Positions 9,909 to 34,910 of a stretch of 64,000 bases of DNA are shown here, piece after piece (the first letter of the stretch is position 1; every line of letters starts with the position of its first letter). The notes below the pieces were generated by a model that was not told the origin of the DNA, did not search any database, and saw only the letters and a program-made list of their open reading frames with translations. This DNA comes from Azolla caroliniana (taxonomy: Eukaryota > Plantae > Polypodiophyta): positions 9,548,001 through 9,612,000 of the forward strand of contig JBHGNT010000020.1 of assembly GCA_043228905.1 (NCBI GenBank). The letters are read 5' to 3'. The position numbers and the translations under genes are program-made.

Positions 9909-9926
9909 TGGTGAACCCGACGTGAA
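9909..9926 (+). promoter_or_regulatory. Primer-binding site for tRNA-Trp
   Basis: TGGTGAACCCGACGTGAA complements the plant tRNA-Trp 3' end (..TTCACGTCGGGTTCACCA); second copy at 56674-56691 (-). Confidence 0.85.
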
Positions 9927-9943
9927 GTCCGGGTGGCAAGGAG

Positions 9944-11986
9944 ATGGAAAATCAACCGGAGGCTAGCAACATGATGATGATGTTCGAGCGCATGCTACAA
10001 GAACAACGTGCGATGTCGGAGATAGCGGCATCAGTGGAGCGGCTCGTGCAACGAAACAGGCAATTCAACGGGAAAGACGTGTCGCGGTATCTTCGGGACT
10101 ACAAGGCGGAGATGCTACGGTGCGGAATATCGGAAGGACTGCAAGTGACGTCCTTCAACCGGGTGGCGACCGACGGGCTTCAAGCAAGCATCCATGGGCT
10201 ACGACAGCAAAATCCGACATGGGAGGCGTTTGAAGTAGAGCTAAAGAGGGCGTTCGCCATCGAGGATTCCTCCAAGGCGACGCGAAGGGGATTCGAAGAC
10301 TGGGTGGAGACGCCGGACAAGGGATTGAAGGTCGTTGATGTGTTTTCGGCATTCGAAAGCCGGTTCGGGAGGTTGTCCGCGAGGGATCAAGCTATCCTCG
10401 TACCGGACAAGGTGATCATGTTCTTGCGAGCCGTGGACGTCCGGGACCAGAAAGATCTCGGAGTGCTCTTGGAGGACACGACCACGGAGAGCGGCCTCAC
10501 CGAAACATGGGAAAGCGTGTGGGATATCGTCGCGCGATACACGAAGAGGGGGCAATGGCTTGCCAACGAGGAAAAGAGGGTTTCGGAACCGATTCCGAAA
10601 CCGAGAACCGGATTGGAAGACCATCAACTGAGGGCTCGAGAGACTACAACCGAGAAGGCGATTGATGCATCTACGGTGGAGCAACTATTGAAGGAGATGG
10701 AGAATCTGAAGATCGCGATGGTGAAGAAGTCGGATGACCGCCCCACAAGCTCCAAGTATACGGACCGACGGTGCATATGGTGCGATAGCGCCGAACACGA
10801 TCGGAGGGATTGCGACGAGCATAAGGAGGCGCTACGGCGGGTTCTCATCTACTACGAGGGAAACCGGATTCATTCGATGGACTCTCGGAAGCCACTCCGA
10901 CCGAACTTCCGTAAAGGCGGCATGAAGAAGGTGCTCGAGGAGGAATTGGCGGCAAGAAGCAACTATGCAACAACCGCGGGAATATGTGTCGGGGAGTCAT
11001 CGAGAGCAAAGACGTCTTTTTGGCCGGAAGTTCTAGAAAACACCGAGAAGACCGACTCTAACGAGATCCGAAGCACCGCGGAAGGCGTCCGGGAAGCTAC
11101 GGGATGGGAGTGCCCTGTCGACAAGAATAGCGTATACGCCCTGTGTCAATTGCATAAGGTGTATGTGGACGAGAAACGACGACGCACGGAGGATGCGGCC
11201 GGGCCATCAAAGATACCGGAAAGCTGGAACTCCGGAGGTAAGGGAAAAGAAAAGGCGACTCCGGCATTCAAGCTCGCCTCGGACATAGAACAACAAACCG
11301 ACTTGAAAAGAGTGTTCGAGGAAAGAATCTTGGATAGCCGGGTAGATTTCTCGCTTCGGGAGCTACTCGGAATAGCAAAGAAGGAGTTCCACGATCTTCT
11401 CGTGGATCTCGTGAAGCGAAAAAGACAAAGTACGGAGGAAAATGCTCCAAGGGTGAATGCGAACACCGTTTTAATGAACGACACCGAAGTGGAGGACGAA
11501 ATTCCGAACTCCCACTATACAAGGCCACATTGGGCACGCGCGACTACGGAGACTCCGGTCCGAATCGGCAACATCAAAGAACCCGTGCTAGCATTGATTG
11601 ATCACGGATCGGAGATCAACTTGATGTCCAAGGAGTTCTACTGGAAGGGGAAGTGGCCTATTAACACCAACCATGGATGGAAGATTCGGGCGGCCACCAA
11701 AGCAACGGAAGATCTATTTGCGGCTTGTCCGGATGTGACGGTGAAGATCGGGGATGTCGAGATCGACCAAAATTTCTTCGTGCAAGATGAGGTTTCACAT
11801 TCCGTCATCCTCGGCCAACCCTTTATCACGGCATCACGGATGGAGACGAAGGTGCTCGATAGCGGTGCGGCTTTTGCACGAATTCGGAGCCAAAACGGTG
11901 GGAAATCCGTCCAATTCCTAACGGTGCCGGCAAATCACGAAAGGAACAAGAGGGAACTCTTGTCCCAAGTGAGAATGGATTTTTAA
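9944..11986 (+). CDS. gag: Gag-protease, 680 aa
   Basis: Zinc knuckle CIWCDSAEHDRRDC; protease ALIDHGSEIN and ILGQPF. Confidence 0.92.
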   Translation: MENQPEASNMMMMFERMLQEQRAMSEIAASVERLVQRNRQFNGKDVSRYLRDYKAEMLRCGISEGLQVTSFNRVATDGLQASIHGLRQQNPTWEAFEVELKRAFAIEDSSKATRRGFEDWVETPDKGLKVVDVFSAFESRFGRLSARDQAILVPDKVIMFLRAVDVRDQKDLGVLLEDTTTESGLTETWESVWDIVARYTKRGQWLANEEKRVSEPIPKPRTGLEDHQLRARETTTEKAIDASTVEQLLKEMENLKIAMVKKSDDRPTSSKYTDRRCIWCDSAEHDRRDCDEHKEALRRVLIYYEGNRIHSMDSRKPLRPNFRKGGMKKVLEEELAARSNYATTAGICVGESSRAKTSFWPEVLENTEKTDSNEIRSTAEGVREATGWECPVDKNSVYALCQLHKVYVDEKRRRTEDAAGPSKIPESWNSGGKGKEKATPAFKLASDIEQQTDLKRVFEERILDSRVDFSLRELLGIAKKEFHDLLVDLVKRKRQSTEENAPRVNANTVLMNDTEVEDEIPNSHYTRPHWARATTETPVRIGNIKEPVLALIDHGSEINLMSKEFYWKGKWPINTNHGWKIRAATKATEDLFAACPDVTVKIGDVEIDQNFFVQDEVSHSVILGQPFITASRMETKVLDSGAAFARIRSQNGGKSVQFLTVPANHERNKRELLSQVRMDF

Positions 11987-12040
11987 AGCGGACTGTTGCG
12001 GAGTGGGGAAGTGATAGTCCGAGAAACCCTGATACCCCAC
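11977..12040 (+). promoter_or_regulatory. -1 ribosomal frameshift signal (G_GAU_UUU plus H-type pseudoknot)
   Basis: Heptamer 11977-11983 just before the gag TAA; stem 1 11989-11999/12011-12021; stem 2 GTGGGG 12003-12008 with CCCCAC 12035-12040; -1 frame open into pol. Confidence 0.8.
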
Positions 12041-15000
12041 ACAGGAAGAAAACTCTCGGAGCAAAACATGTACGAACAGGTCCGGATGGGGCATCTACGT
12101 ACACGACCGTAACCGGAGGATTGAAGAAAGGATACCGACAAGTGGAGGATAAGTTGCGGTCGGCATCAATAATAAAAGAAGATGAAGAAATCGTGGGGAT
12201 AGTCGAAGAAGTGTTCTATGGGAGCACGCTACAACGACTTGAAGAACTTGCGGAAGATAAAAGCCAAGGGAACCGGGTAGTCCCGGTGGAATCGGTCGAG
12301 ATGTACGAGATCATTGCGAAAATGGAGCCGGATACGCTCCGCAAAGAAGAAGCAATGGTAAGTACGAAATACAAGACCATGGAGAAGAAGGTGAAACCGG
12401 CCGCGGGACCACTACCCGTCGATAGCGAACAAAAGAGGAAAGAAGTCTCGGGAGATCCGACACTTCGGAAGACCGTGGATATCGGACATGCCTTCACGGA
12501 TGAGACCCGGAAGAAACTTCGGATCGGTGGAGGTGGGTTCCTATTACAAAAAGAAGAAGAACGGTTTCGCGAGATGTTGGAGCAATACGGCAAAGCATTT
12601 GCATTTACATCAAGGGAGATAGGGTGCGTCGATCCGAGAACAGTGGAGCTGATGGTGATCTTCACGATTGACCATGTACCGTGGAACCTGAAGCCGATTC
12701 CGGTGCCACGAGCGCATATTCCGAAAGTCATTGACTTGCTCAAGGAGAAGGTGGCGATGGGGATTCTAGAGCCATCAACTGCTCCGTACTCAAATCGATG
12801 GTTTACGGTTCCGAAGAAGAATGGGTCACTCCGATTTATCCAAGACTTGCAACCGGTGAATAAGGTCACGATCCGGAACTCGGGAGTCGGTCCGATAGTG
12901 GACGAATTTGCGGAAGCTTTTGCCGGTCGTGCGATATACTCCATCGGAGACCTATACTCGGGGTATGACCAATTCCAACTAGCCGTGGAGAGTCGAGACA
13001 TCACAACCATGCGAACACCGATAGGATTAGTCCGAATGTGCACACTACCACAAGGAGCGACAAACTCGGTTGCTCATATGATGAACGCGATGAACAAGGT
13101 GCTTCGAGACTGCATTCCGGAGATAACGATGCCGTTCCTCGATGACATTCCGATGAAAGGATGCGCGGTAGAAGAAAAAGATGAGACTATGGATGATCGG
13201 GGATGCCGAAAGTTCGTGGTCGACCATATTCATGATTGCGAGAAAGTGTTGCGAAAGCTAGAAGATGTGCACCTAACACTTTCCGGGGAGAAATCGGCAT
13301 TCGGGCAAGAAGAAATATTGGTGGTCGGACATCTATGTGGGCCCTACGGCCGAAGACCGTCACCAACAAAGATCGATGCGATTCAAGCTATGGAGGAAGT
13401 ATGCGAGTCAACATCCGAAGTCCGAAGGTTTCTCGGTGCATGTGCATTCTATCACATATGGATTCCGCACTATGCACATATAGCGGATCCACTCTACCAC
13501 TTGTTGCGGAAAGGTAAGAAATTCGAATGGAAACCAGAACACACCAAAGCCATGAAGAAATTGAAGAAGACACTTCGGAGGGCGGAAGCACTTAAGAAAC
13601 CGAGCTATGACCGACCGATCATAGTAACGGTTGATACAAGTCCAACCGGTATCGGGTGGGTCATCAATCAAGCCGACTCGGATGGTTCGCGGTATCCGAT
13701 CCGATTCGGAGCAAAGGTTCTCAACGAAAGGCAACGTGGATATGCGCAAGTCAAAAGAGAACTGTGGGGAGTCGTGTTGGCGATAAAATCGGATCGGGAT
13801 TATTTGATCGGAGCCGAAGTGGTGATCGAGACGGATTGTCTTCTGATACTCGGGATGATGCGGTGTTGTACGATACCGGATGTAGCTATGCTAAGGTGGG
13901 TTACATATGTCAAGTCGCTTAATCCGGAGGTTCGACACATCTCGGGGAAGGACAACGCGGTAGCGGATATGTTATCAAGGGCTCGGTTCGGAGACGACAT
14001 AACCGAATTGGATAATGAAGAAGTTTCCGAAGACTACTTCGCGTCGGAGCACATATGCCGAGTAAACGTAATCCGGGAATTCCGGGAAGAAGAATACGAG
14101 GGAGAAAGCTTGATGATCGGGAAGATGTTACAAGAGGCCGAGGATTCAACAAACGATAAAGGAAGAAGAGCCGAGATCCGAAGGAAGAAGAGACAAGTCC
14201 AAAAGTTCTTCTTGGAAAACGGATTAATATGGAGGGCGCCGAAAAGACCGGATGGTATACCACTTCGAGTAGTTGGGACAAAAGAGCAACGAAACCGGAT
14301 AATGTCCGAGTTTCACGAATCCGATTGGGCTGGACACCGAGGAACATGGGCAACATTTGTGAAGATCAAGCAAAAATATTGGTGGAAGAAAATGTACAAA
14401 GATGTCGCGGAGTTCACGGAAAGCTGCGAGAAATGTCAAGTCTACTCCGGGGTTCGACATCGAGATGAGTTACATCCGACATTCTCACCGACAATCAACT
14501 TCAAGTGGATGGTTGACATAGTGGCCATGCCGATCGGGATCGGACAAAAGAAATACTTGGTATTAGCTCGGGAAGATCTCACGAATCAAGTAGAAGGTCG
14601 AGCGCTTCAGAGGAAAACGTGTTCCGCGGTATGCCAATTTCTTTTGGAGGAAGTATTTTGCAGGTACAGGTGCGTAGGACAAGTGATTGCGGACCGGGGA
14701 GAACTCGACTCGGACAAAGCTAGGGGATTCTTCGCTAAACACGGAGTTCGGTTATCGCTGACAACGGCATACAATCCGGAGGCCAACGGGAAAATCGAAT
14801 GAGGACATAGTCCGATCGTGAAAGCACTTGCGAAGGCATGCGATGGAAAGGTGAAGGACTGGCCGCAGATGCTTCTGTATGCACTATGGGCGGATCGGAC
14901 GACGCATAGTTCCATAACTGGTTACATGCCGGCAGAACTCATGACCGGACAAGCACCGGTAATGCCGACGGAAACCGCGATCGCAACATGGACAGTGCTA

Positions 15001-15618
15001 CCGTGGAAGGAAGAGATGAGCCGGGAAGAACTACTAGCGGTCCGGATACGACAACTAGAGGGAAGACCGGCAGACATAGCGGAAGCAATACGCCGACAAC
15101 AAGAAGCACGATTAAGGAACAAAAGCCGGTTCGACACAAAGCACCGACTACGACCGAGGAGGATTGAAGAAGGAGATTGGGTGATCGTCTATGACAGTAG
15201 TTTGGACCATCAACATACAACGATGCGGAAATTCGCGAAAAGGTGGTTCGGGCCATACGAGGTTCAGAAAGTCTTCGACAACGGAACGTACCGACTGTCC
15301 GAGTTGGATGGAACAATACTACGAGTGCCTATAGCCGGGAAGCGGGTGAAGATTTTCAAGAAGCGGACCGACGACAAACCCTATGTGATCCAAGCCAAGG
15401 CCGACAACGAGGAGCAATCGGACGAAGACCACGGTGATGCGGGAAGCGAAGAAAGTGAATTACAACTCATAGTCGACATAAGGGGAGAATCGGAGGAAGC
15501 TTTGGGTGAAGACGGATATGGGGGATCGAGAACTTCGGCACATACCGGAGGATGTGCGGGTTCGGAGGGGGCGAATGTCGTAGTGTATTCCACACACTAC
15601 GTGAAAACCATAAAATAA
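11983..15618 (+). pseudogene. pol: Pol (RT-RNaseH-integrase) with one premature stop (CGA>TGA at 14800-14802)
   Basis: LPQG..PFLDD (RT), VDTSPTGIG (RH), H-H-C-C, DRGE, YNPEANGKIE, WFGPY; copy 2 has Arg at the stop. Confidence 0.93.
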
Positions 15619-16005
15619 TATATCCGATTTTAGATACATATAAATAAATAAATAATATATCAAAAGAATTTATCACGTGCATAGGGCAGGATTTGAACCA
15701 TGCACCTCCACATAGATAAACCCCAACTTTACCATTGTAATAATTTATCCTTAGTATTATAAATATAGAGTTAATACGTATAAGACCTTTATTTACACAT
15801 ACCTTTATTAAAAGGTAAAAATCATGTATTCTTTAGAGTGTGAATATTTTATTTACACGTGCCATTAAAAGTGACTCATGCACGTCTAGCGTGCATGAGC
15901 CCTATATTTAGGAAATGACAAAGCATCACATGCACATTTAGTGTGCATGGACACTTTAGGTGAAAAAGCATCACATGCACATTTAGTGTGCATGGACACT
16001 TTAGG

Positions 16006-18303
16006 ATCTCGCATTCGTCCTTCATCGTGGACATGGCCTCCACCTTCGCCGGAGACAGTATCCGGACGTAAGGCCCGCACAAGTGCCCGACTACTAGGAT
16101 CTCCGACTACCCGAAAGCTGACTTCTCTCTGGAGAAGGTGAGCCGCGCGCTCTCAAGCCTTTGTAGCACCTTCTCAGAATCTTTCATGTGGTCCGCAACA
16201 AACCTTCGGCAACCGTCCGATGCAACCGACTCATCCTTATCTTCCACCGGACATCCCTTTATCGATATGTCGTCCAAAATGGCATGGTGATGTCTGGGAT
16301 GCAGTGCCTTAGCACTTTGTTCATAGCGTTCACCATGTGCGCCACCGAGTTGGTCCCTCCTTGCGACAAGGTACACATCCACACTAGGCCGAGAGGAGTC
16401 CGCATCATCGTAATATCCTTGCTCTCCACGGCTAGTTGGAACTAGTTCTACCCCAAGTATAGATCCTTGACCGAATAGATCGACCTTCCGGCGAAGGCCT
16501 TTGCAAACTCGTCAATGGTCGGCCCAATACCTGTATTTCGAATGGTCACTTTATTGACCAATTGCAGGTCCTGAATGAAGCACAACGTGCCGTTCTTCTT
16601 TGGCACCGTAAACCACCGGTTCGAATATGGGGCACTCGACGGCTCGAGGATGCCCAACTCCACCTTCTATTTCAGCGGCTTTACCAACTCCAGGATGTGA
16701 GCTCTAGGTACCGGAATTAGCTTGAGATTCCACAACACATGAGGTACCGTGAAGATCACCATTGGTTCCACGATCGTCGGGTCCACGCACCCGATCTCCC
16801 CCGGCGTGAACGCGAAGGCCTTCCCGTGCCTTCCGAGCATTCCCTGAAACCTCTCCTCCTCCACCGGTAGTAGGAAGCCACCCCAACCGACCTTGAGCTC
16901 CCGTAGCATTATGTCGGTGAACCGGTGTCCTATGCCGGCTGGATTCCGCAAACTTGGGTCCCACATGACCCCTTTTATTCATTCCTCACTGCCCTCCGGC
17001 AAGGGTGTCGCGACTGGCCTCACCTTCCAGTCCACAGTCTTGTACCTTGTATCCACGCAGGCCGTCCGATCCGACCTGACCCTTTCCCCGAAGTCGGCAA
17101 TGACTTCGTACATTCCCACCGAGTTAACCAGAATCATGCGGTCTTCACTAAGGCCTTCTTCGACCACCTTCCCGATTTCCCTGAGGGTGTCGTCGAAAGA
17201 GACCGCCTCCATGGCGCCACTAATTTCCTCATCGGGGTCGAGGACTCCGCATGTCCTGAGTGGTTCCTCTACCCGCTTCTTCTCCCAGCCAATGATGTCG
17301 GCTATTGTACAACCTCCGCTTACGGAGAACCAAAAATCCCTACCCATGGTACAAGTGTGGGGATCCTCCGGGGTGTTTGGACTATCGCAGCCCCACGCCT
17401 TGATAGCCCTCTCTAAAAATCCCCTTGTTCGCCGCTGCCGAGGGTTTCGCGGTTCCGCTCATGGTTCCGTCGTACGGTCAGGAATTGGACGGAGTGCCGT
17501 CCATCTTGGCTCTTTACGCGCGCGTATGCCGAACCATTATCCAGCACCCTTGTCACCATATGCGCCGCCGTAATATACGGCTCGCTAAGTATCACCGGCG
17601 TGCACCCATCCATTCCATAGGTACACCACATTACCCCTGAGGGCTTCGGCAAACTCCACGCAGTCTCGCCGACTGTGTCTGACCGCGTCACACCACATAC
17701 ACCGTTGTCCAGCCGGTGACCTTCGGTCGTGTGGCTGCCCTCCACTGTCTCTCCGAGCCTGCGCGATCTACAGGTCGCGTACCATTTGTGTCAGCTCCTC
17801 AAGAGCCGCTCCCCCGAATGGGCCCTTAACCGCTCCGGTCAACGTTGGCCCAGTTTCAAGCCAATCCTGGGTTTCCTCCTTTCGTGCCAACGAAGGCTCG
17901 TCGAACTTCCTTGCCGGGGCGGGTCCCGTCGCCGACGACTTCTCGTCGCCCCACTCTCGCCGTTTGTCGAAGTGGCTGCAAACCCCCTTGACCGTGGCCC
18001 AGTCAGTCGTCCGCCCATCATCTGTCTCCAGCAGGAGACCCACTTGGTCCCTATCCCGCACGTCCAACGATTTGACGAACAACAGGACACGGCTCGTGTC
18101 CAACACGGTCTTGTTCAACGTTGAGAGCCGTGCGAAGCGTTCTTCGAACTCCCGGAGGAGCGCCGACGCATTCCTCCCCTTTCCGGGGGTTTCCACCCAA
18201 TACATGAATTCCCACTTCGATAACCAAAGCACTCCATCAAGCCCGTACCTTTCGAGGAGCCGTGCTTCGAATTCTCCCCAGGTCCGGCATCCAGCAAGGA
18301 AGT
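16006..18303 (-). mobile_element. Diverged, degenerate Phygy-like fragment (copy 3; partial gag, PR end, RT)
   Basis: PYSNRWFTVPKKNG and VQFLTV..GDF* homologous to copy 1; deletion between zinc knuckle and protease end; frameshift signal at ~17360-17422. Confidence 0.9.
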
Positions 18304-18309
18304 GGGCTC

Positions 18310-21300
18310 CTTTTGGGCAAAAAACACACGTATCTCACCGAATAAAAAAGATGTATGTAGACAACGTATAAGTCGGGGTAGGTACCAGATTCACCCAAGA
18401 CACTTCTTGAAGATGACTGAGGTTATTCAATTTTTAATCTATTTGGTTTTAAATATTTTGTTGTTTACTAAATGCTTCTATTAATGTTACCTATTTATTG
18501 AGTGATGTAGGTTGAATTGTTCATGAACTTCAAAGACCAACATCCTAGCATCAATCTTGGATTTTGCAAGTTCCACGGTTTGAAACCATTTTTTGTTAGA
18601 AAGTTAAAGGAGAGGAACACATGTTTGTTGTGTGTACCACATTAAAATGGACATGTTAAGGCTTGGCGTGAACAATATGCGTACTGATTCTAAGGCTATA
18701 CATGGGGATGGGTGTGTTTGCACTTGTGAGGTATGTAGACCAAATGGGAGTGGTAATAGATGTAATGCGCAAAACATGACCTATGCAACAGTTTCTGAGT
18801 TATGGAGGTCTTTTGTTTGCGAAAAACAACCATCATCTGAGTGGCATAATCGTACATGTCTTGTCAAAACATGTAAGGTTTGCCCACAACCGTTATTTTG
18901 TAGACAGGAGGTTGACGTGGATAACTGTCATATTCTGAAATGGAAATATTTAGAGTATATGACAGAAAATATAGGCAAGGGTCTCGTTAGTAAGCGTATC
19001 AAGGAAGTATATAAGGAGACATGTGTTGCTACCCTTGTCTCAGAGTTTAAGAAGCAACTTGAGGAGTTCATTCTACATAACTTTAGGAGTTATTGGCAAA
19101 ATTCACAGTTCAAGGAATGTATAAATAACTTACCACCGGATGTTTTGGTATATGTTTTTGACTTTGTAGAGAACTATACAATTAAAGTTCAAAATGAGGT
19201 TCAGCCAATGTATTGGTACAATGACCAATGTACAATACTTGTACATATTTGCTATTGGAGAAAAGATGGTGAGTTACATAAAAAATCGATATTCTATATT
19301 TTAGATGATAAAAAGCATGATACACTATTTGTTCAACATTGTTTTAAGCTTCACCACGCAAATTTATTGTCCTTGGTTGTTAACTTTTATCGCCATTGGG
19401 TCTAGTCTGATGGTGTTGCCTCGCAATTTAAGGCGGCTTGGTCCTTCTACTTCATTGCAAGGTAAGGAAATAATCCATATGATTGGTACTTATAACTGGA
19501 AGTCTATTTTGGTAATACTTCATAGTACATCATCTATTGCTCGAGTTTCCTACCAGTACGAATATTATATGAACAGTCATAAAAAATGTTTGTATAAAAT
19601 ACAATTAGTAATTCTCCTACTACATGCACTAGTACTGTCTTGAAATGTTTGTATAAAATGCAATTAGTAATTCTCCTACTACATGCACCAGTACTGACTT
19701 GAAATGTTTGTACTATCTTGAAATGTTTGTACTAATTATGGTGTAAGTCTTGTATGTATGGTTCAAAGCCTTGAAAAGTATCCTTATTTTACAACTTAGT
19801 AGTATCATCCCACATGCACAAGTATTGACTACGGTTCAACGCCTTGTAAAGTACCCTTATTTTACAACTTAGTACTATCATCCCACATGCACAAGTACTG
19901 ACTATGTTTTACAACTTAGTACTCGGATCCCGCATTCACAAGTACTAATTGATAACTTTGTGGTGTCATCCCACAGGCAGGAGTACTAATTTGTAACTTA
20001 GCATTGTCCTCTATCGTGCATTAGTACTAATGAATAACTTAGTTCTATCTTCTTTCGGTCATTACTACTCGTTTATAACTTTGTTCATTAGTACTAACTT
20101 TGTTCAGTAGTACTAATTAGGATGAGTCTCTCTAGTGCATTAGTATTAAATAATAACTTAGTATTGTCCAACTTTGTTCATTAACACAAGTTTATAACTT
20201 ATGATTGTCATGGCCCATTAGTACAAACATTCGTACTAATTATTAGCATGAGAACTATCCAACTATGTTCATTACTACTAATTATTAACTTAGTACTGTC
20301 CAACTTTATTCATTAAGACCAAGTTATAACTTAGGACTGTCCTCTCTCATGCATTAGTACTAATCAATAGCTTAGTACTATTCTCTCTCGTTCATTTCTT
20401 TTAATTTATAACTTAGTATTGTCCTCTCTCGTGCATTAGTGGAAATTTGGTTTAAGTCATGTTAAGAGATGTAAGCTCCAGTAATGCACTAACTTTGTTT
20501 GTTGGCTAACTGTCATGCAAAACACCCAGATACTTCTCATTGACAAACATTAGGATGCAATGGAACTACTTTGGGCCTGGACATGGAAAAGGAGAGCACG
20601 ATGGCGCGGGGGTTGTGATCAAGCGTGCTCTTACAAGTGAACAGTTGGAAAATAAAGGTGCGAAGTTACAAAATGCACATGATGTTGTGGAGTGGCTGAT
20701 ATGGAAGATGTCAGATGATGGTAAGAATAGATTGTTTATTGAGGTTGGTGCTAATGTGGTGGATAGGAGTAAATCATATGGTTGTAAAACTGTGAAAGGG
20801 ACGCGCAAGACCCATTGTGTTTTAGGTTTAGTCACAGGGACACAACACAATTGTTATTCCGTAGTTTATCGTGCTTTTGTTCCATGTATTTAGATGAAGC
20901 TGGGATGAATGCACCAATCTATCAATTGTGGAGCCATGGAAGCTACAGAAACTTGAGATTGAACAATGTGTGGATATCCAGGAAGACGAACATGTAGACA
21001 ATATTGTATACTACAACCAATGTGAGGACTTGGAAGTATTATTGGAAGTTGGAGATCATTTTGCAGTACTCAAATCTCCTCAAAATGAAGATTTTGAAGA
21101 CTACCACATTGTGGTGTGCAAGCAAGGAAATACTATATTGGAAGAAGTCGTGAGGGACGGTTGGGGCAACATGTTCAACGTTGGTGAGTGTGTCGTGTAT
21201 GGCAACTACTATGCAAAGTTACCACAATGCAAGAACACGTATGCATTATTAAAAGATGCACCCACTGCAATAATCTATGTTGACGCTGTCATCGCAATCA

Positions 21301-21413
21301 AGTTCACTATGAGTCAAGCAAAGCACAAGGTTAAGGGATACAAAACTGTCTACAAGGTCCCCAAAGAGGTTCACGAACACATATTGGGGGAGGTCTCCCT
21401 CTTTAATTCTTAG
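18310..21413 (+). pseudogene. Sola2-like DDD transposase, intron-containing (introns ~18422-18510 and 19462-20529)
   Basis: F..LKPFFV...RNTCxCxxH; DFVENY..VQNEVQ..YW; DDKKHD; W*SDG..SQFK; WNYFGPGHGKGEHDGAG..IKR. GT-AG splice at 19461/20530 rebuilds AR|YFSL in frame. Stop at 19403-19405 and frameshifts. Confidence 0.85.
19590..20440. repeat. Degenerate tandem array rich in the AGTACT palindrome (transposase intron)
   Basis: About 13 exact AGTACT plus AGTATT/TGTACT variants in ~1 kb. Confidence 0.85.
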
Positions 21414-22099
21414 AATGGCAAGCATTGTTCATATGTAACATTCGCATGTCTTGTAAACTCTGGCCTACAAATGAATGGAAATATATCATCTTTGGTTTTC
21501 TTATGAGTTTGCAATGACAAAGCTCTTAATCTCGGTGTTTTGTTTAGATATGTATGTACTAAAACTATGTTAAGTGTTTCCTAACCTAGAGATATCTAAG
21601 ATAGGAGCATTCATTCCACACATGTTTCTAGTGTGTGGTACACTCATGAGGGTGTGGTTGACTAGATGAGGGAACAGATTGAACATGTTAATTGTTAGTA
21701 CTAATACAATGGTTCGTTCAAGTATACATATCATGTTCATATGCATTAAAATATAGTACTTATATTGTGCTAAGTGTTTACTAACCTAGACATATCCAAG
21801 ACAGGAGTGTCGTATGTGTCCATAACAAGCGTCAATGTCATATGTGTGCATAAGAAGTGCCATTCTTACTAAGATGAGACCTCAAATAGTATCAAATTCA
21901 CGTTCTTACAAATATATGTATCAAAGTTAGTACATCGCATATCAAGTTGGTACTAAATTAGTCACTAAGATGAGTACTCAAATAGTATCAAGTTCAAATT
22001 CAGGATAAGTAAACCAAAACAGTGTCAAGAAGTAGTTAATCAAAACTTGCTCATACGGTAATCAATTACAAACAACGATCTAAATACAAAAAACTTTGT

Positions 22100-25000
22100 T
22101 TTTAGTTTTTTCTAGATCTTGTAATGTGCCTATTTTTTGTTACACTCTTCTTAGATTTCACACCCTTCTTCTTCATCATCTTAAAGCCACGAGGTAGTAG
22201 ACTACTGAGTGGCAATTCATCATCACGGGGGGGGGGGGGGGGGCAAGCTTGAGGGAACCTTGTGCTCTACTACAACTTCCTGAGACGCACACACTTCCAA
22301 GAAGATCTTGTCGATAGTATTAGCATTAATCTGCTCTTCATGGGTAGAACCGGTGTTCTGCAGTAACACGGTATTCGTAGTACAAACGTGTTCCTCTTCT
22401 TGGGTGGTTTCCATATTCATTGCAAACTCCTCGTGGTTGAAGCTAGACACCTGGTTCTTTGTACAGTCTTGTTCCAAGTGCAGGCTACTTGCAGTTTTTT
22501 GGTAAGACATGTGATTCGTGGTACCACCTTGTTCCTCTTCTTGGGTGGTAGCTACAATCTCCTTAATGATTTATTCTTGCCCCATGTTTACGGTACTGTC
22601 AAAATTCTTCAGCTCCTCTTCTTGGGTGATTTCACATTCCTCATGTGTGGTGTTATCTGAGTCTAAAAAATCAAGATTGCTCCATAGACTGCTTGAATCA
22701 TTTGATGCTATTTGGGAATCTCCATGTTCTTCTATTCCTAAATAACAAGAACAATATCAATTCACATTCTTACAAAGTGAAGGAACCTAGCCATATCAAT
22801 TAACATACTAGATTAAGGGACAATCGTTTACCTATTGTTACATCTCCATCCAGGACTTTTGAAGATGAGTCTTTGCAGATGATTGTGTTTGTCATGTGTT
22901 GCAATACCTGGTTTGCATTGGTATTGCACTCGTCATTATTGCTTGGGATGGTACCAGTCTCAGGTTGGGGCTTTGAATCATGCCAAGATTTTACATCACT
23001 TTCTATATATTAATAGACCAAAACAATTATTGTCGCTTGGGTGATATGGTCAAAATAACTATTATATAAGAGGGTTCACAACATGTACTTGCGAGGACGA
23101 TAAATTCTTCTTCATGTTGTGGCTCTGAATCGGTATCTCCATTTTCATTAATCGTTTCTTCCTTGTCTAACAACAAAAGCACGTGGTCTTAGTCTAACTC
23201 ATTAACTTTACAGCTCTCAAAGTTTGTGAGAATTTGTATGACCCACCACTACAATGAACTCTGCATTTCTTCCCCTTTCCATACAATTTCCTTGCAGCAT
23301 TACGCTTCTTCGTAGGCTCTTTGATAGAAACATAAGAAATTAGAAGTATAGAAACAATGCATTATTAATAGTTCACACACAATTAGCATTACCGTTCACA
23401 CAATCAAGGGGAGCCGAGCTAGGAGAATTTGTTTGAAGCAACACGTCTTCAATTGTTCCAATGGCCTTTCTCATACGTTCATCTTCATCATAAATTTCCT
23501 CAGTTACCACTAAGGAATGACCATGGACTTTGGAATTTGCAACAGACTCTGTACGTAGTAGTGCGGGGGCTGGTTGGTTAGTTACCTTCCCTGGTGTGGT
23601 GTTGCTTGATACTACAACATTCATATTATAATCGTACATTAGTTCTAACATGACGACAATGTTACAAATATTATTAGTACTGAATCAAGTGGACATTTAA
23701 GACCTTCAGTACTAAAAAATCAATCTTGTTCCAATTGATCACCAAGGAATATGCATGTAATAGTAATATTAGTACTAAAACAACAAAGAGGAACTTGAGG
23801 ACACAATACAGAACCATTTGGACATGCTGTTGATATTTGTTCGGTACTAAACAAAAGACCTGCATGCCTATTTGTTCAGTCATCCAGAGCCTATTTGTTC
23901 GGTTCTCCTATTTGTTAGTACACATACAAGTGATACAACTAAACATTTAAGATGTTCAATACTAAATAATCAGTACTGAATCAACTCAACACCAAAGGAT
24001 ACAATATAATCAGTAAGTTAGTACTAAAACATCAATCAAGGAACTTGAGAGAACATTACTGAACCACCTGGACACAAAACGTACAATGTAATGGACAATG
24101 TTAGTACTTATACAAGTTATACAACCAATAAATTAAGACATTCAGTACTAAATAATCAGTACTGAATCAACTGATCACCAAGGAATACAATGTAATCAGT
24201 AATGTTAGTACTGAATCCTCCAACAAGGAACTTGAGGGCACATTACACAACCACCTGGACATGCATATTTCATGTAATGAACAATGTTAGTAATAAAAAA
24301 CCTAGACCTTCATGCCTATTTGTTCGGTCATCCAGAGCCTAAGCCAAGTCGACACAAAAAGTACAATGTAATAAATAATGTTAGTGCACATGCAAGTTAT
24401 ACAACTAAACATTTAAGATCCTCAGTACTAAATAAGATTCACATTGTCAATTGATCACCAAGGAATACAATGTAATCAGTAATGTTAGTATTGAATCATG
24501 TAAAAATGATCACCAAGGAATAGTACTCATGGGTATAAGACCAGAACCAAATGTTAAAATTATAAAAGCATAGTATAAAAATTACATATGTTCTTAATCA
24601 CATACCATAGGAATGTACTTTCAAACCTCAAGTTAAGTATTATTCGGCGCCAACTGTACTTTTACAGTGTAAACATATATTTTCTTTCTCAAAATGGTAC
24701 TTAGCGCATAAACAATGATATGTGTGCAAGCATGGTGTAATGATAGCATCCATGGCCTCAAACTTGAATCCAAGGCCACAGAATACACACCTTCAAATAC
24801 GAGAAACAACATACACTATATTAGCAACGATGATATTTTATACAATAGAAGGTCAACTTGTAAAAATATAAACCATTACCTTGATACAATAATTCTTGTA
24901 ATGGTATTTTCATTGCAAGTGGGATGCTCAACTACTTCTAGCCATAGAGGATCTAAACCTTTATCTTTTAGTCCCTTCATCAAACATGTCAGGTTCTCAG

Positions 25001-25897
25001 AGTGACTTTTTAAGGCTGATAACTTATCATCAATTTTAGAACGAGATGACCTCCATGTCTCCAGATCTTTCTTCTGTTTTCCTAGTTCAGTGCCCATATT
25101 TGTCAGCTCCTTCTTCAACTCCTCTTTCAACACATCGCTTTCAGAATGTTGGATTGTTGTTGTTATCCATTCGTATGTATTCGATATAGATGTGAATTGT
25201 TTCTCTGCCGCCATCTCACTAGATGAAACTTCTTCCAAATCGTTGAGCAACACTTGCATTCTTGTTTGCATGGAAGCTATGCAACGCAACAATCGTTGTT
25301 CATGCTTTTCTATCAATGTAGCTCTTTCTTTTGCAATCTGTTTAGTCAATACAAATGTCCTAGCTAGTATTTCAATGTGAGAGGTACCCTCAAACTTCAT
25401 AGTAGTGTTGGTACTTGAGGACCCTCTATAATGTGATGATCGATGATGAGCAAAATCTTCCCAATCAACTTCAATGCCACCATGGAGTTCACATGCAAAT
25501 GCACGTGCAAAAACAATTCCTACCTCATTGTTTAGGATATGTTTTGTATCATAAACTTGTTCATATCGTGACTTTAGTTCAGTGATATAATCCTTCTTCA
25601 ATTGAGTGAGGTGAAAACCTCTCCTTGTCTTCGGTTGTGATGAGCCCCATGTTTTGATCATCCACATGTCTACGTCTTCATAAGTGTCAGGTCGTGCATG
25701 AAGGAAATATCCCCATCCTAACTTTCTACCTCAAAGGATGTTTGTGAACATCTTCTTGCCCTGAGATGTTGACAACTTAAACCTCCCTCTAGTGGGGGTC
25801 ATCTTACTTTTTTTGATGGGGTCCTTTTTCTTTCCTTGCATGGTGTGTTGACATTTTCTTTGACCATTTTCGTCTTCGTGGGTGTCTTCCTTGTCAT
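22100..25897 (-). pseudogene. Multi-exon accessory gene of unknown function (helical domain, coiled coil, acidic TQEEE repeats, poly-Pro, basic tail)
   Basis: ORFs 24876-25667, 23373-23651, 22223-22510; candidate splice sites at 24880, 23644, 23393, ~23166, ~23090, ~23003, ~22908, ~22737; ATG at 25897. Exon phases not fully resolved. Confidence 0.65.
23660..24530. repeat. Degenerate AGTACT-rich tandem array in an accessory-gene intron
   Basis: About 11 AGTACT; repeated GATCACCAAGGAATA and CATGCCTATTTGTTC blocks. Confidence 0.85.
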
Positions 25898-26558
25898 TTG
25901 AATCCTATCTCTCTTCTTCACCTCACACACACAACAATAGTAAATAACAATAGATCAATCACAATTGTCTTTTTTCATCAATCACAACTCCCGATACACA
26001 ACATATACATGCTAAACCATGGAAAATCATTGCAGCGTACCATCATAGAACCATCTTCCAATATGTCAACATGTACCAAATTCTAAATCATGCAATAAAT
26101 GACATATGCATGTAAAATACTCTCAATTTCAAGCATATGCATGTACAAGTGTTTGAAATGATCAAGGGAGAACAACACGAACAACAACAACAAAACCCTA
26201 ACATGTAGTAGAACGTGAAGGTAAGCCTAAAACAAGATTACCTTTTCAGATGTCGTTAGGGTTGCAAATAGTAGGATTACCTTCTGAAGTCCTTGCAGAG
26301 GGGACACGTTTGAAGCACGGGTTGCAAGCAAACAGACACACCAGGTAGAGGGAACATAGTGACTTGGGAACACCTGGAGGTAGAGCAAAGCAGAGGTCAC
26401 AACTAGCAGAGAGGACACGGCCAGTAGAGCAGAGGTCGATGTTGTTAGGACACGGTGAGCACAGAACACCTAACAGTGAGGGAGAACAAGGTCAACTAAG
26501 GGAGAGAGAACGCAGTAAACCCTAGAGAGGTTGAAAGACCTGTGCAGAAGGTGGAAGT

Positions 26559-26589
<31 letters not shown>

Positions 26590-26629
26590 TATATTATCGT
26601 CTTCGGAGGTCAAATATGACCTATGAGAC

Positions 26630-29600
26630 CAAAAAGATTACATTTCACGTGATACGTGTGAAAGTGAGTAGTGACTCTCGATGTTCAAGAACTTTACCAA
26701 TGAATGTTGCAATCGAGAGTGCACATTGTGGTTGTGAGAGGAATTCATGCAAAGATTGGGCTTGATCGAAGAGATGTGGAAAGCATGGTCGAATATGATC
26801 AAAGGCAGAGCATTGTATCAAAGTGTGATACTCAGACTCGCGAACTTGTTTAGGGAAAAGTGTGCATGCCGACCACTCTCATCACTTGTACCCCAACGCC
26901 CTATTTCACATCACAATGCATGTGAGCTCAGTCGCATGGAAGCAATGGTTCGAATGGAAGATAACGGTATGGGCTCTAACACGTATGGATGTGTACGATT
27001 TCCCCGTTCCGCAAAGAATATGGTTTTGTAGTTAGGTGCAACATGTGTAGTATAATGTGTGAAGCGTGAGCCTCCACATTTGTCCCATGTCATGATACAT
27101 TGGCGTTGCAAAAATGCCTCATTTATAGAGGAATCTAATGATGCATCATGAAGCAAGTGTCTCGCATCCCATCTACCAAACCATTTTTCTATATCTTGCA
27201 TCCAACCGGAACACAAAATTTTTCTTTTATGCGTCTTTTGGATCTTTTTGCTTGCTTCCCACGCAATTCTAGGAAGTCGATGTGAGGGACTTTTTAAAAC
27301 CTTAAGCATGTATTCAACAACCCTTTCCATGGCCATGATCTCAATGGGAAGAGATCCCGTCTCAAGGAGGAGGAGGGTGTAGGGCGTTTGTTTTCTTAAC
27401 TTGTAGAAACTTGGTAAGAAAATGCTTTTGGACATTTTCAAACTCTTTCCACATAGATTTAGGGATGCTGCCGCCCCATACTTCCACCCCATAGAGAAGA
27501 ACCGGTGTCACCAAAGTGTCGAAAAGATATTTCTTGAGGACCCAACACTTAATATCTCCAAGATTGCATGTGTTCTCAAATGCATAGTATGCTCGCTTGC
27601 CTGCCTCTAAACGGCGTGTAACACATTCATTCCATCTATGATTTGAAGGAACTTCAAGGCCAAGATATTTGAAGCTTTCCACACATTCAAGTGGCTCATT
27701 GTTGTACATAATGCATGGTTTATCTCTTTTTTGGCTCTTCACAAGCATAATCTTTGTTTTAGAGCTATTGACACTTAATTTAGTATGCATGCAAAATTTT
27801 TCCAATGCCTTCATAAACTTTTGTGCATCTCCAAAAGTATTTGCAAAAAGCACTACATCATTTGCATATAGCAAAAGCATAATCACAACATTCCCAATGG
27901 CAACTTCTTCAACACATTCTTCCTTTGCAAACTTGGTAACCATTTCTTCCAATTCATCAATGCATAGACCAAATAGTGTTGGTGAGAGTGGGCATCCTTG
28001 CTTAACACCAATAGTGCTTTTGAAAAAATCTGAAAGTTTATCTCTCATGCGCACACAACATATAACCTTCTCATAAATTCGGGAAATTGCAAGCATATAT
28101 TCACTTGACACCTCAAGTTCTTCCATTCGCCTCCAAAGATGTTCACGAGGTACCATATCAAAAGCTTTCTTGAAGTCTACAAAGCAACAATATAAACCTT
28201 TACCTCTAAGGCGACTTTCCTCCATTAATACTCGAAGGGTGATAAGGTGATCAATGGTGCTATGGTGTTTCCGAAAGCCAGCTTGTCCATAAGCTCTCTT
28301 ACCACTTTTTTCAGCCCATACACTTATCTTTGATTCCATTATACATCCAAATAGTTTTGCCATTAATGAGCCAACCATGATGGTTTGATAGTTGTTTACA
28401 TTATTTATATCTCCACCTTTATGTAAAGGTTTGATCCAATTTGTAGTCCAATCGTACGGCATACCATGTTGCAATGCATCATTAAACATATCGCTTATCC
28501 ATATATGTGCTTCCTTTCCCGTCCATTTGAGCATTTTAGCCTTTATACATTGAAGATCGCTTGCCTTCCGAGAGGCCAATTTCTTAAGTCCTATGCATAT
28601 ATCTTCAATTGTAAAGAAGGGAGGCATATGTGAAAGAGAACCATAACACATCATCTTTCCGGCAAGAGATAACTCATATAAATTCTTACAATGCATAGAC
28701 AAGTCGTTAAGACTTAAGTCACCATAACTCTCAACACGTTTTCCCTTTAGATTTCCCCAAAATTTCGCACATGCATGTGTTTTCTCTTGCGTTTGGATAA
28801 GTTGTTGAGTAACTTCCCATATTCTTCTCTTTCTTTGAATAAGCCTTTTATACTCATGCAAATGCTTTTGGTAATTCTCTTTATCCTTAACTACATCCAA
28901 AACCATAAGGCACTTTCGAGCTTCACGACATTCTTTATCAAACCATTTTTTCCTAAGTTTCTTGGTGCATTTCCAAGATGTGCGATTGGTCGAAAAACAT
29001 TTGTTTGTACATGAGAGAATGACTTTCTTGAAAGCTTCCCATTTGCATTCTAGTGTGGCACCATGTTGTATCTTTGTCATTTGTAACATATCCTCAACCA
29101 TCTTGGAATACATGGGTGCTCGCTTAAGGTTCATGCTCAAGTGCGGTTGTTTATTATCTTCAATAGCCTTCTCACAATCAAACCTATGCATACATTTGAG
29201 ATCAATACATAAAGGCCTATGATCGGATTCCGGTGTCCATTCACCAAGTGAGAATTTATGTATACGATCCAAAATACCTTCGGAAAGTAGCACATAGTCA
29301 ATCACACTATTTCCGTTGTGTTTTCTACATGTAAAACCATTAGTGTTGGGCCATAAGGAAATACCATTTGCAATAAGAAATCCGGTACTATTGCACATTT
29401 GTAGGAGTAACTTCCCAAATTGGTCCGGATCTTTTTCATCGCTAGAAGAGCGGTTATACATTTGCATATCCTCTTGCATCCTTGAGATATGTGGCATGAA
29501 AGATTCTTGTGAATCAAGTTGGAAACTTCTTGTACGAGCATTCATGTCACCAAAGACAATAACTTCCCCTTTGGATTTGAAATAAGCAATATCATCTTCT

Positions 29601-30019
29601 AGATTGGCAAACGATTGATCTTTATCCAAACAAGCATAAAAGTTAGAATCATGATGAGGAATGTAACATCCAACTACAAAAGTGGGCAAATCATTAGGTG
29701 TTTCTATTTTGAGCCATATGTAGCATTTATTTTCATCATTTTTTATGATTGACACATATTTCTCTATTTCCTTCTTAATCAAACATGCCACCCCTCCTTG
29801 TCCTCTTCTTTGTCTTGGATTTTTCTTCCATATCAAAGAGTGTACATTATAGTTTCCTAAACCTTGAATCCTTTGAGTATCATGCTCCCATGTTTCAACA
29901 AGAAGTGTGATATCCGAGTCATCGGTGAACTCCTCTATGCCAAATCCCGCATACCATGGGTATCCATTGCAATTCCAAAAGTATAGTCGTAAAAGGCGCG
30001 GGTTAGTCTCATAGATCAC
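26630..30019 (-). pseudogene. LINE ORF2 (APE endonuclease, RT, C-terminal Cys/His region); frameshifted, RT YADD changed to YAND
   Basis: WNCNG, ETW, GDMNAR, IDY, SDH (APE); QAGFR, FVDFKKAFD, GVKQGCPLSP, FKYLG (RT); EIGRW..ESEYH..C. Confidence 0.92.
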
Positions 30020-30025
30020 GTGTCC

Positions 30026-30895
30026 CTATTTGCCTACATTTCCATCTTTAGGCACATCCTTAACCTTGTTTTTCAATCTTTCTTCATATGCTTTATGACG
30101 AGCATTTTGTTGTGAGATAGTACGATCTTCACTCACAAAGCATTGTGTACCTTTGAGGTATACCCAACTATTTTCGAGTATGATCCGCCGCTTTGTATCA
30201 TCTGTCATTGTGCATACAATAGGCCTTTCTCCGGAGCGAGTAACACCATGTTTCCCAACTCGGTGTGCCCCATATACATTCACATCTGACATCCCATAAT
30301 GCATGCTAAAAAAATCACCAATGGCCTTTCCAAGGGATGCAGGTGTTTCAATACTCTCTTCTTTAATCCCACGGACGACAATGTTCTTTGATCGTCGTTC
30401 ACGTTCTTTCAATTCTCGGACATCTATGTTTTCTATATTCTTCTCTTGATGCATCACATGCATATTAGATGAGTTTGATAGCACATCCCCACCACATACA
30501 TCGGCCCATGACTTCGTTGTACATACATTTTTCATCTCACTTACATCCCACCTCATCGTGTCCAATTTTTCTTCTTTTAATGCTTCCTTTAACTCAATCT
30601 TGTTAAGGTGCTCATTTGTTTCAAAAGAAGCTCTTTTACATTCTTGAATCTCTTCTTGAAGTTTTGCAACCACTTGTTTAAGACTTTCATTTTCAATGAC
30701 AACACTTTGGAGCTTAGTATTCTCTTTCATTAACGTCCTAATCTCTTCACCTTGCTTGTTTATGGTTTCTTGAAGAGAAATCAAGTGACTCATAAGCATT
30801 TTGTCCATTGCATTAGAATCGAGATTTGTTGGTGATCTCGGCTCATTATCAATTATACCCCCGAACTTTGCAGCGGTTTTACAAGTATTTGCCAT
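30026..30895 (-). CDS. LINE ORF1 (coiled coil plus RRM-like domain)
   Basis: RERRSKNIVVRGIKE..HRVGK..RPIV..SEDRT; ends 6 bp before ORF2. Confidence 0.85.
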   Translation of the reverse strand: MANTCKTAAKFGGIIDNEPRSPTNLDSNAMDKMLMSHLISLQETINKQGEEIRTLMKENTKLQSVVIENESLKQVVAKLQEEIQECKRASFETNEHLNKIELKEALKEEKLDTMRWDVSEMKNVCTTKSWADVCGGDVLSNSSNMHVMHQEKNIENIDVRELKERERRSKNIVVRGIKEESIETPASLGKAIGDFFSMHYGMSDVNVYGAHRVGKHGVTRSGERPIVCTMTDDTKRRIILENSWVYLKGTQCFVSEDRTISQQNARHKAYEERLKNKVKDVPKDGNVGK

Positions 30896-31028
30896 TGTAG
30901 GGACAAACCCTACGGGAAAAGAGAGACAGAGAGGGAAGGAGAGAGAATGTACCTTTCACTCGATTTAGGGCTTCAAAATCTACCTTCCGTTTGAGGAACC
31001 GTGGGGCAAAGATGGATGCGAATGAAAG

Positions 31029-31225
31029 AGAGATAGAGAGGGGGAGAGGAGGTACGAACAACGAGCAGTGACACGCTTGGAGTCTGCAGAGACCTGTGCA
31101 GAAGGTGGAAGAGAGACAGAGAGGGGGAGAGGAGGTACGAACGACGAGCAGTGATGCGCTTGGAGTCTGTAGAGACCTGTACAGAAGGTAGAAGAGAGAT
31201 AGAGAGGGGGAAAGGAGGTATGAAC
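31029..31225. repeat. 83-bp tandem repeat upstream of the accessory gene
   Basis: AGACCTGT at 26536, 31090, 31173. Confidence 0.8.
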
Positions 31226-31429
31226 CTCAGGAATCAGCAAGTAGAAGGGGGAAGGAGAGGGAGGGAGGGAGAGAGAGAGAGAGAGGGAGAGAGACTAACT
31301 GACAGTTCGAGATGAACATATGTGCCAAGAGAGAGAGCGAGAGAGAGACATACTTACTATATTCATAATTGAGTGCAGTTAAGATTTCCGTACAACATTA
31401 CCTAGGACTGTGACCCAACAACCTCAACT

Positions 31430-32875
31430 TTTTTAACCCAAATATTGGATTATTTTTCTTTCCTCGTCATCGAATTAGTACTAAAATTTTGGCCAAATTT
31501 TGGTACACCGTAGCGTGCTTTCACCCCCATCTTTCGCCTTGTTATGCAACCTAGTTCCGATTCTTGAGCCTCCCTCGTGCTCCTCTACATGTGCTCTCTT
31601 TCCCACTAAAACATCATATGAATCCCCATCTAACATGACCTTCCCACATGTATTTAATGCATCCTTTGCATTATCATTCTTCTTAAACTCAATCAAATTA
31701 ATACCATGAGAATTTACTTGATTTTGTGACCTTTGCTCTTCTACTTGTCTTGGAATTGGGGCAATACCTTGTCTTTTTTGCTTACGATGTGGACAATTTG
31801 GTGAAATATGCACTCGTTCAAAGCAATTATAACACTGCACATTGGGATTTTGCCTCCCAATATCTTTCTTTTGTTGAGAAACTTGCATAGATCTTGTAAG
31901 TTCAGCTTGGTTGATACAAAGCTTACTTACTTCATCAACAATCTTTTCCACTTGTGCAATATCCATGACCCCACTTGTAGAAGACTCTCTCCGTGAAGAC
32001 ACATCAGGACTTTTCTCATGTACCCTGTGAACATATGGTGTCGCACTTTCAATAGCTTCATCATCTTCTCTCATGTCCATCCCAAGCTTTCTCATCCTCT
32101 TTCTCCATTTACTTATTGCCACCTCTTTTGCCTTTTCAAAAGATCCAAGTTCCTTATCATCTACCTTCTCTTTAATATCCTCATCCAAGGCCATGATAAA
32201 TTGGTCACGCTTGAAAAAATCGGGCGGAACTTGATCATTTCCCAATATCTCCAATCTCCTATATAAATCTTCAAACCTCATATTAAAATCCCTAATATCC
32301 TCTTCATACCCTTGCCTTACCCTTCTAATATCCTTCCAAATAGCTTCTGGAGTCTCAGTTTTTTGAAATTGGGCTAACAATGCTTGTTGAAAACGTGCCC
32401 AATCATTCTTCACCTCTATTGGCACTGACCTTATATACCAATCTAAACCCAGCCCATCCAACAAAAGGCTTACTATTATCGCTACATCAGCATAACTCTT
32501 TCTAGCTTGTAAAGCCCAAATCTTCAACCGATGCACGAATTGCACCACATCACTATTGTCCTAGTGAAAGGCTCAATAAAGAGATCTGCCATTATTTTGA
32601 AATACCCAACTGCCGAAATATGCAACAAATATAACAATACCACCAACTCCAATATTAATATACTACTTGGCCTTGATTATGACAAAACTGAAAGTCCTCC
32701 GTCGTTGTCAAGATTGGTCCTCAGTGAGAGCACCAAAACCTATTGCGCGAGAATTTGCCTCTCAAAACTGTAGCACAATACATCTAGAAACACACAAGGC
32801 ACATCATCATAAGGCACCATAACAACATCTATGAGTTTACGAAAGAACACAAACAAAAAAAGAGATGAATGGGTA
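31430..32875 (-). mobile_element. gag: Truncated Ty3/gypsy 5' part (LTR stub, tRNA-Thr-like PBS, gag)
   Basis: ORF 31481-32548 with Retrotrans_gag features (W..F...L..QF, VRQG..E) and CYNC..HISPNC; PBS TGGTGCTCTCACTGAGG at 32719-32735. Confidence 0.75.
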
Positions 32876-34850: not shown

Positions 34851-34910
34851 GTTAAACGATTGAGTCCAGCCAAAATAGGAGTCGTTTGGTTGGACAGCAG
34901 CCCTAGATCT
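34851..34910 (+). promoter_or_regulatory. -1 frameshift signal (G_UUA_AAC plus 11-bp stem)
   Basis: Heptamer 34851-34857; gag TGA at 34861-34863; stem GTCCAGCCAAA/TTTGGTTGGAC 6 nt downstream; protease ORF in the -1 frame. Confidence 0.7.

Follow-up and report, generated by a model that had tools for sequence, protein, structure and literature searches.

Sequence-specific anti-silencing is established for two kinds of DNA transposon in flowering plants, the Mutator-like elements (MULEs), through VANC, and the Spm elements, through TnpA. The locus described here belongs to a fern, Azolla caroliniana: a stretch of 64,000 nucleotides (assembly GCA_043228905.1, contig JBHGNT010000020.1, positions 9,548,001 to 9,612,000 of the forward strand; called the window below, with positions counted from its first letter) contains a copy of a two-gene Sola2 transposon, in which a transposase gene and a convergent accessory gene both have introns filled with tandem repeats that carry a short word. 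In VANC proteins, variable regions contain peptides repeated in tandem, and the motifs are specific to the family, differing between the related families of VANC21 and VANC6 (PMC5735166); VANC is described as related to MAIN and specific to dicots (PMC13547354). In maize, transposition requires TnpA (bioRxiv 10.64898/2026.08.24.746577). Sola elements produce 4-bp target-site duplications (TSDs) (PMC10741241), a reference alignment is available for Sola2 (PMC3627910 Additional file 10), and Ectocarpus has large Sola elements that carry accessory genes (PMC12477816).

The explanation we favour, with slightly less than even confidence, is that the Azolla element represents a two-gene Sola2 family whose accessory protein, which carries a RING finger, reads a word specific to its family and, as a ubiquitin ligase addressed in this way, maintains the activity of the family's own copies. 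A protein encoded by the element would bind the family word, with a conserved helical core domain and a basic N-terminus as the reader. Its RING-H2 finger would recruit a host ubiquitin-conjugating enzyme (E2) and ubiquitylate histones or silencing proteins near the arrays, and the outcome would be relief of silencing, as with VANC and TnpA. The anatomy and evolution of the system are well supported; binding, ligase activity and demethylation are functions that we infer.

At least 150 relatives of the accessory exon are present in the 523-Mb genome, and they fall into two subfamilies. Subfamily A, which includes the window copy, is older and stop-ridden; subfamily B, at about 62% identity, has many open frames of 357 residues. 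By transposase and TSD the carrier is a Sola2 element, as the initial annotation had proposed: the DFAENY, SDG and HGKG-x-x-DG motifs and the upstream blocks match the Sola2 alignment, in a comparison made by eye without a profile score. Sola2 elements have G-R-G termini, and the full-length A/B copies (11.0–12.5 kb) have 26-base terminal inverted repeats (TIRs) beginning GGG, a pattern with 254 exact matches in the genome against 0 for a control pattern. Pfam scans of the transposase had no Sola2 model to match (PMC5751038). TSDs of 4 bp and TIRs enclose both genes in five of the six A/B copies in which both ends were examined, the sixth being ambiguous. The linkage count took 104 accessory loci (the 20 best and 84 of B type, leaving out 46 that were intermediate and mostly partial) and, on the transposase side, all 150 listed matches. 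A transposase match lies within 20 kb of 72 of the 104 loci, where chance would give about 0.011 per locus, and all 72 pairs are convergent, tail to tail. The accessory gene therefore lies inside the TIRs and is linked to Sola2 copies. Subfamily B also has an open frame of 99 residues between the two genes (copy L027, 8649–8945, minus strand), with no Pfam match.

An intact B copy gives an open accessory gene model of 922 residues in six exons with GT-AG ends. The protein begins with a basic N-terminus, followed by a conserved domain of about 100 residues (the core) and then by a predicted coiled coil and a RING-H2 finger; beyond the finger come a short conserved block, an acidic region in which peptides repeat in tandem, and a basic tail. 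The finger occupies its own 185-base exon and follows the C3H2C3 pattern, with all eight zinc ligands present in A and B. It matches PF13639 with E-values of 2.2e-4 in the window copy and 4.5e-5 in subfamily B, and a profile search matches solved RING-H2 ligases, for example RNF38 (E 5e-4). The initial annotation had correctly described a convergent multi-exon gene but had missed the in-frame RING-H2 exon at 24606–24790. It had also called the gene an orphan, a label that fails given this domain and the homologs in Adiantum and in the sister family D described below. There are 29 homologous proteins at E ≤ 0.001, and of 10 looked up, five come from the fern Adiantum nelumboides, where they are annotated as hypothetical proteins. 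The order of core, coil and RING is kept in two distant proteins (20–26% identity) and in family D; no longer homologs were found among 7992 candidates, which is weak evidence. The C-terminal block DD-x-x-LS-x-L-x-P-x-G-x-K (22192–22224 of the window, minus strand) is kept in A, B and the Adiantum homologs, though the acidic region preceding it is unalignable, and is a possible host-binding motif.

Between A and the B1 consensus, the ratio of nonsynonymous to synonymous substitution rates (dN/dS) in accessory exon 1 is 0.35 (0.25–0.48), well below the value of 1 that the initial annotation had named as the point to check. By part, it is 0.42 for the core, 0.29 for the coil, 0.26 for the RING and 0.37 for exon 3, and the transposase gives 0.16–0.21. 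Judged by these ratios, the accessory gene, RING included, is under purifying selection. A ratio of 1.75 between B1 and B2 in the last exon was set aside because the tandem peptide repeats misalign there.

The core is predicted to be a small helical domain in B (pLDDT 77, pTM 0.73); the model for D has a pLDDT of 66. No Pfam family fits it, DUF1985 and DUF287 included. Foldseek gave no match for the B core at E ≤ 0.001 in PDB or viral structures (the best Z in VIA being 3.4) and none for the D core, and neither of two ESM Atlas queries gave a usable match. No VANC chain is among the fold matches listed for either core, a result that shows neither a new fold nor a difference from VANC.

Contigs of four sequencing runs, none recorded as RNA, were aligned to a B copy and show GT..AG joints on the transposase strand only, namely intron 1 (in one run) and joints from the array-intron donor to three alternative acceptors. 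The accessory gene has no joint in these contigs, and the support for its exon model is therefore the conserved GT-AG ends and the reading frame. On the window copy the output is dominated by an inserted element that resembles a long interspersed nuclear element (LINE). In copy L041, contigs join the array-intron donor to far-downstream acceptors (1330 to 1549, 5700 and 5895; 5998 to 6125 and 6280), antisense to the accessory gene and skipping the exon with the third catalytic D; these joints may reflect regulatory splicing or deleted copies.

The window contains 53 AGTACT, where 11.9 are expected. Within the element, 13 copies lie at 19631–20379 in the transposase intron and 11 at 23676–24527 in the accessory intron. 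One thousand dinucleotide shuffles of these introns gave means of 1.06 and 0.57 and maxima of 6 and 4, respectively. All of 19 unannotated 10-kb stretches of the genome hold 0–4 copies each (45 in 190 kb, or 0.24 per kb), and the array introns, at 11–12 per kb, stand about 50-fold above this background. The controls were thus shuffles and unannotated stretches at round coordinates, in place of annotated ordinary introns. The earlier counts (13, 11 and a few between the genes, three on recounting) and the enrichment claimed from them are upheld. Scarcity in exons holds for the window copy, with one AGTACT in a transposase exon (21065) and none in accessory exons, but not for intact subfamily B, in which the last accessory exon has six in 1046 bases. 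The initial annotation was also right that a shared word has been amplified, but the palindrome is not the conserved unit, which is (A/T)GTACT: all 41 GTAC of a B transposase intron have this form, 26 of them asymmetric and 15 AGTACT. Arrays are unalignable between A and B and between the two introns, as the differing repeats first described had indicated, so different repeat units carry one word. Array length ranges from 0.7 to 2.1 kb across the measured copies at a steady density (21–32 words per kb in B, 11–16 in A). There are 38–102 (A/T)GTACT per A/B element, and the word also occurs just inside both TIRs.

A host factor might read such a word. SBP domains bind a GTAC core, and moss PpSBP2 binds GTACT (PMC3617394). 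The arrays could accordingly recruit host SBP/SPL factors through (A/T)GTACT and confer developmental or copper-dependent expression, the accessory gene being independent of them. The uniform context of the 41 GTAC would fit, as would the presence of AGTACTnnnAGTACT in two unrelated families of long terminal repeat (LTR) type. However, family D has the same layout with TAGCTA, which lacks GTAC, and a second host factor would be needed in all the same compartments. Recruitment of SBP/SPL factors is a real alternative for A/B that leaves family D unexplained, and overall we consider it improbable.

Between B lineages, compared in disjoint pairs, GTACT positions differ at 13 of 1068 sites, against 257 of 5905 for other positions outside CG and CHG contexts; the corresponding figures for the other intron are 13 of 692 and 210 of 4279. 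In the dead A copies GTACT diverges as other positions do (0.033 against 0.032, and 0.039 against 0.041). Selection on the word between B lineages has moderate support from these comparisons. They bear on the proposal that the arrays are neutral satellites, in which slippage or microhomology at short A+T-rich palindromes amplifies any such word in introns that tolerate changes of length. The very variable array length agrees with this, words without CG and CHG would persist in methylated DNA, and other frequent 5-mers are similarly conserved in one intron. It accounts poorly for the lower divergence of the word between B lineages and not between dead A copies, and for one word in the non-homologous units of two introns, in the intergenic stretch and at both ends, which switches as a set between families. 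We judge neutral amplification less probable again than recruitment of SBP/SPL factors.

One further candidate, that AGTACT is the target of the amino-methyltransferases borne by transposons of this genome, is unsupported: their elements, in four families, hold 0–2 AGTACT each in all eight copies. One methyltransferase-carrying family has an ATGCAT-rich array near its methyltransferase match (loci L079–L082, about 6500–8900).

A distant Sola2 transposase met in a flank defines a sister family, D (loci L039:1030–2310 and L119–L134), with at least 150 relatives, eight copies of which were fetched. The elements are 10.8–12.2 kb long, with 4-base TSDs in all seven fetched copies that have both ends, and many have intact transposase frames of 619 residues. 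The transposase is 42% identical to that of A/B, and the first 12 bases of the TIR are nearly common to both. The genes are convergent as in A/B, and the RING is followed by an array intron at the equivalent place. The accessory core is homologous to that of A/B (NNELSVSFARAFA block; hhalign E 2.6e-4, at a probability of only 42%). The word is different: TAGCTA occurs 193–210 times per element in the three D copies counted, against 1–2 times in four of four A/B copies, and (A/T)GTACT 11–13 times in D, far below its A/B range. The D word usually appears as TAGCTAATTAGCTA, and 3–5 TAGCTA lie within 150 bases of each end. The transposase array sits in intron 1 in D and in intron 2 in A/B, where intron 1 is short and plain; from this difference in position, the D array had a separate origin. 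Both words can be read as TAG and CTA half-sites, two or zero bases apart, although only part of the A/B sites fit, and we take this as a hint.

Protein queries for a third family gave A/B loci at the top, and a search with a variant TIR pattern turned up variants of family D together with an unrelated repeat (16 of 67 places inspected). Metagenome scans with two query proteins returned no locus, and hence no element of another species. An unrelated repeat family (loci L140, L144–L146 and L149) contains GGGTAAAAGCACACA, which resembles a Sola2 terminus.

Because the word switches with the family as a set, at both ends, in the intergenic part and in the two intron arrays, we infer that its reader is encoded by the element. 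The main rival for that role is the transposase. On this account the subterminal words would build the transpososome and the intron arrays would be transposase-responsive enhancers, while the RING protein would have a separate job, such as degrading a host defence protein without binding DNA. In A, B and D alike, the word does lie within 150 bases of each end, the transposase has a helix-turn-helix (HTH) and a diverged N-terminus, and the AtMu1 transposase is reported to activate cognate copies (bioRxiv 10.64898/2026.08.24.746577). However, the outer TIR, which is the expected transposase site, hardly changes between A/B and D while the word does, and most word copies lie 3–9 kb away from the ends, with half of them inside the intron of the accessory gene itself, at an equivalent place in A, B and D. 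For these reasons, and because its gene is fixed, selected and evolving faster than the transposase, the accessory protein is favoured as the reader, and a transposase reader seems unlikely.

It could also be that the accessory protein binds the word as a transposition cofactor, bridging the ends through its coiled coil in the manner of TnpA, and not as an anti-silencing factor. The subterminal words at both ends, the long predicted coiled coil and the need for TnpA in maize transposition (bioRxiv 10.64898/2026.08.24.746577) all suit this role, which leaves the kilobase arrays deep inside the element and the conserved RING unaccounted for. We think it the least probable of the explanations considered here.

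Several observations weigh against an addressed ubiquitin ligase, our preferred explanation. The RING score is below the Pfam curated cut-off (24.1 against 27.3 bits), and Pfam scans recognised no DNA-binding domain in the accessory protein. The D transposase does contain an HTH (PF08279, E 6.5e-5), and the N-terminal part of the transposase (27–33%) is about as diverged between families as the accessory core (19–24%). Only D has a NIF phosphatase-like frame (PF03031, E 4.4e-7; L126:448–1584, minus strand), which A/B lack, so the accessory genes of the two may do different jobs. Two motif states are known, and the co-evolution of word and family is thus one contrast, A/B against D. In the transposase intron the conservation of GTACT ranks 10th of 41 frequent 5-mers, although in the accessory intron it comes first of 37, and words shared between repeat units can look more conserved than they are once the units are aligned. 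In the B arrays, CG and CHG sites have diverged at 2.5 times the rate of other sites; the arrays were therefore methylated during part of their history, and any protection from methylation has not been constant. Finally, the word is not private to Sola2. The paired AGTACT AGTACTnnnAGTACT occurs 5715 times in the genome, against 542 for a control pattern, and all six loci examined belong to two unrelated LTR-type families, both also present in the window.

The window copy itself belongs to subfamily A and is 5'-truncated and decayed. Alignment with other copies and a frame check find stops or frame breaks in both of its genes, by which it is dead. BLAST alignments with 10 other copies all begin at 18297, and the missing 5' part was not found elsewhere within the window. 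The right end is at 31526, and not at 26500 as first annotated, whereas the spliced transposase and the convergent multi-exon gene are both present as described. The features are as follows.

18297–31526, no strand assigned: Sola2 element, subfamily A; the left break at 18297 abuts a retrotransposon gag-like frame, and the element is split by an insertion at about 26569–31022 (BLAST against 10 copies).
18297–18421, plus strand: remnant of transposase exon 1.
18511–19461, plus strand: transposase exon 2, with a Cys-rich region and the first and second catalytic D motifs (in agreement with the Sola2 alignment); a single frame change and a single stop.
19462–20529, plus strand: transposase intron 2, GT..AG; tandem array with units of 59, 73 and 41 bases, 13 AGTACT and 17 (A/T)GTACT.
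20530–21413, plus strand: transposase exon 3, with the GHGKGEHDG motif and the third D; two frame changes.
21414–22107, no strand assigned: intergenic stretch with three AGTACT (21697, 21755, 21973).
22108–23611, minus strand: accessory gene 3' exons, decayed, with the short conserved block, acidic low-complexity region and basic tail (tblastn with the 922-residue subfamily B model).
23612–24605, minus strand: accessory intron 2, GT..AG; tandem array with a 186-base unit, 11 AGTACT and 13 (A/T)GTACT.
24606–24790, minus strand: RING-H2 exon, in frame with exon 1; two stops directly after the RING in the window copy (PF13639 and frame check).
24880–25897, minus strand: accessory exon 1, with the basic N-terminus, the conserved helical core domain (about 25430–25730) and the predicted coiled coil; one frame break, and one stop near the 5' end.
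26569–31022, minus strand: inserted LINE-like retroelement with an 887-residue frame at 27362–30025 (gap against other copies and open reading frame list; labelled from motifs, not from a family search).
31477–31482, no strand assigned: subterminal AGTACT, just inside the right TIR.
31501–31526, no strand assigned: right TIR, 26 bases, ending CCC.

Outside the element, the first LTR family (33894–34343 and 45513–46469) has four AGTACT within 70 bases of one LTR end and more in its internal part, at 34762–34989. The second, unrelated LTR family (47400–47414 and 60614–60628; a related LTR at 6180–6510) has AGTACTGACAGTACT about 25 bases from a TATA-like box on the minus strand. A pair of 6.7-kb LTR retrotransposons at 9200–15971 and 50311–57173, 99% identical and in opposite orientation, points to recent activity. 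Tandem arrays are also present at 3621–4253 (211 bases, three copies) and 57235–57548 (28 bases, 11 copies).

More broadly, we put forward only tentatively that a Sola2 clade in seed-free plants encodes sequence-addressed ubiquitin ligases directed against silencing. A new helical DNA-binding domain, re-tuned in each family to its own intron arrays, would deliver the RING-H2 finger (and, in one family, also a phosphatase-like domain) to the chromatin of the element. The system would have evolved independently of VANC and TnpA and would have a catalytic arm of its own, and LTR retrotransposons with the same word may hitch-hike on the system. Two intact families with different words in one genome are suited to a swap of protein and array between B and D, and a small re-targetable DNA-binding domain fused to a ubiquitin ligase could serve epigenome editing.

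Among Sola elements, the family agrees with described Sola2 (PMC3627910, PMC10741241) in its catalytic motifs, upstream blocks, 4-bp TSD and 26-base TIR, and its size is in the reported range. It differs in its fixed second gene with a RING-H2 finger and its family-specific intron arrays: no paper describing either feature in a Sola element was found by full-text searches, which did not reach most subscription papers and Repbase entries. Sola1-1_Ec32 of Ectocarpus (PMC12477816) is likewise large and has an accessory gene that is proposed to modify the sequence of the element itself, but it belongs to Sola1 and the gene encodes a ParB-like protein with an N4C/N6A methyltransferase, rather than a RING protein.

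The VANDAL elements of Arabidopsis, MULEs that encode VANC (PMC5735166, PMC10398659, PMC13547354), resemble the Azolla families in several ways. An accessory gene with a coiled coil lies inside a DNA transposon; a short word has been amplified in tandem repeats that change quickly and lie in introns, between genes and at the termini; a related family has a different word; and the protein has a variable region with tandem peptide repeats. VANC binds its motif and demethylates, as the accessory protein here would. The carrier is Sola2 with 4-bp TSDs, not MULE/VANDAL, and neither DUF1985 nor DUF287 is among the matches listed at E ≤ 1 in Pfam scans of A, B, D or 16 aligned homologs, so that by Pfam and by carrier the accessory protein is not a VANC homolog. 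The RING finger, which the accessible portions of these papers do not mention for VANC, offers a direct biochemical handle that VANC apparently lacks. The analogy drawn in the initial annotation, a protein paired with a motif, is thus borne out as far as a family-specific motif in the same compartments goes, on the one contrast of A/B with D; it does not extend to the Pfam domain of VANC. TnpA of Spm/CACTA elements (bioRxiv 10.64898/2026.08.24.746577) is likewise an accessory factor with family-specific clustered motifs, also near the ends, but TnpA is transposase-derived and acts at the termini, whereas the accessory protein here has no transposase similarity and most of the motifs are intronic. 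If the favoured explanation is correct, VANC and TnpA would be joined by a third protein, unrelated to them and belonging to a Sola2 clade in a seed-free plant, and the strategy of addressing a protein to an array would have evolved repeatedly.

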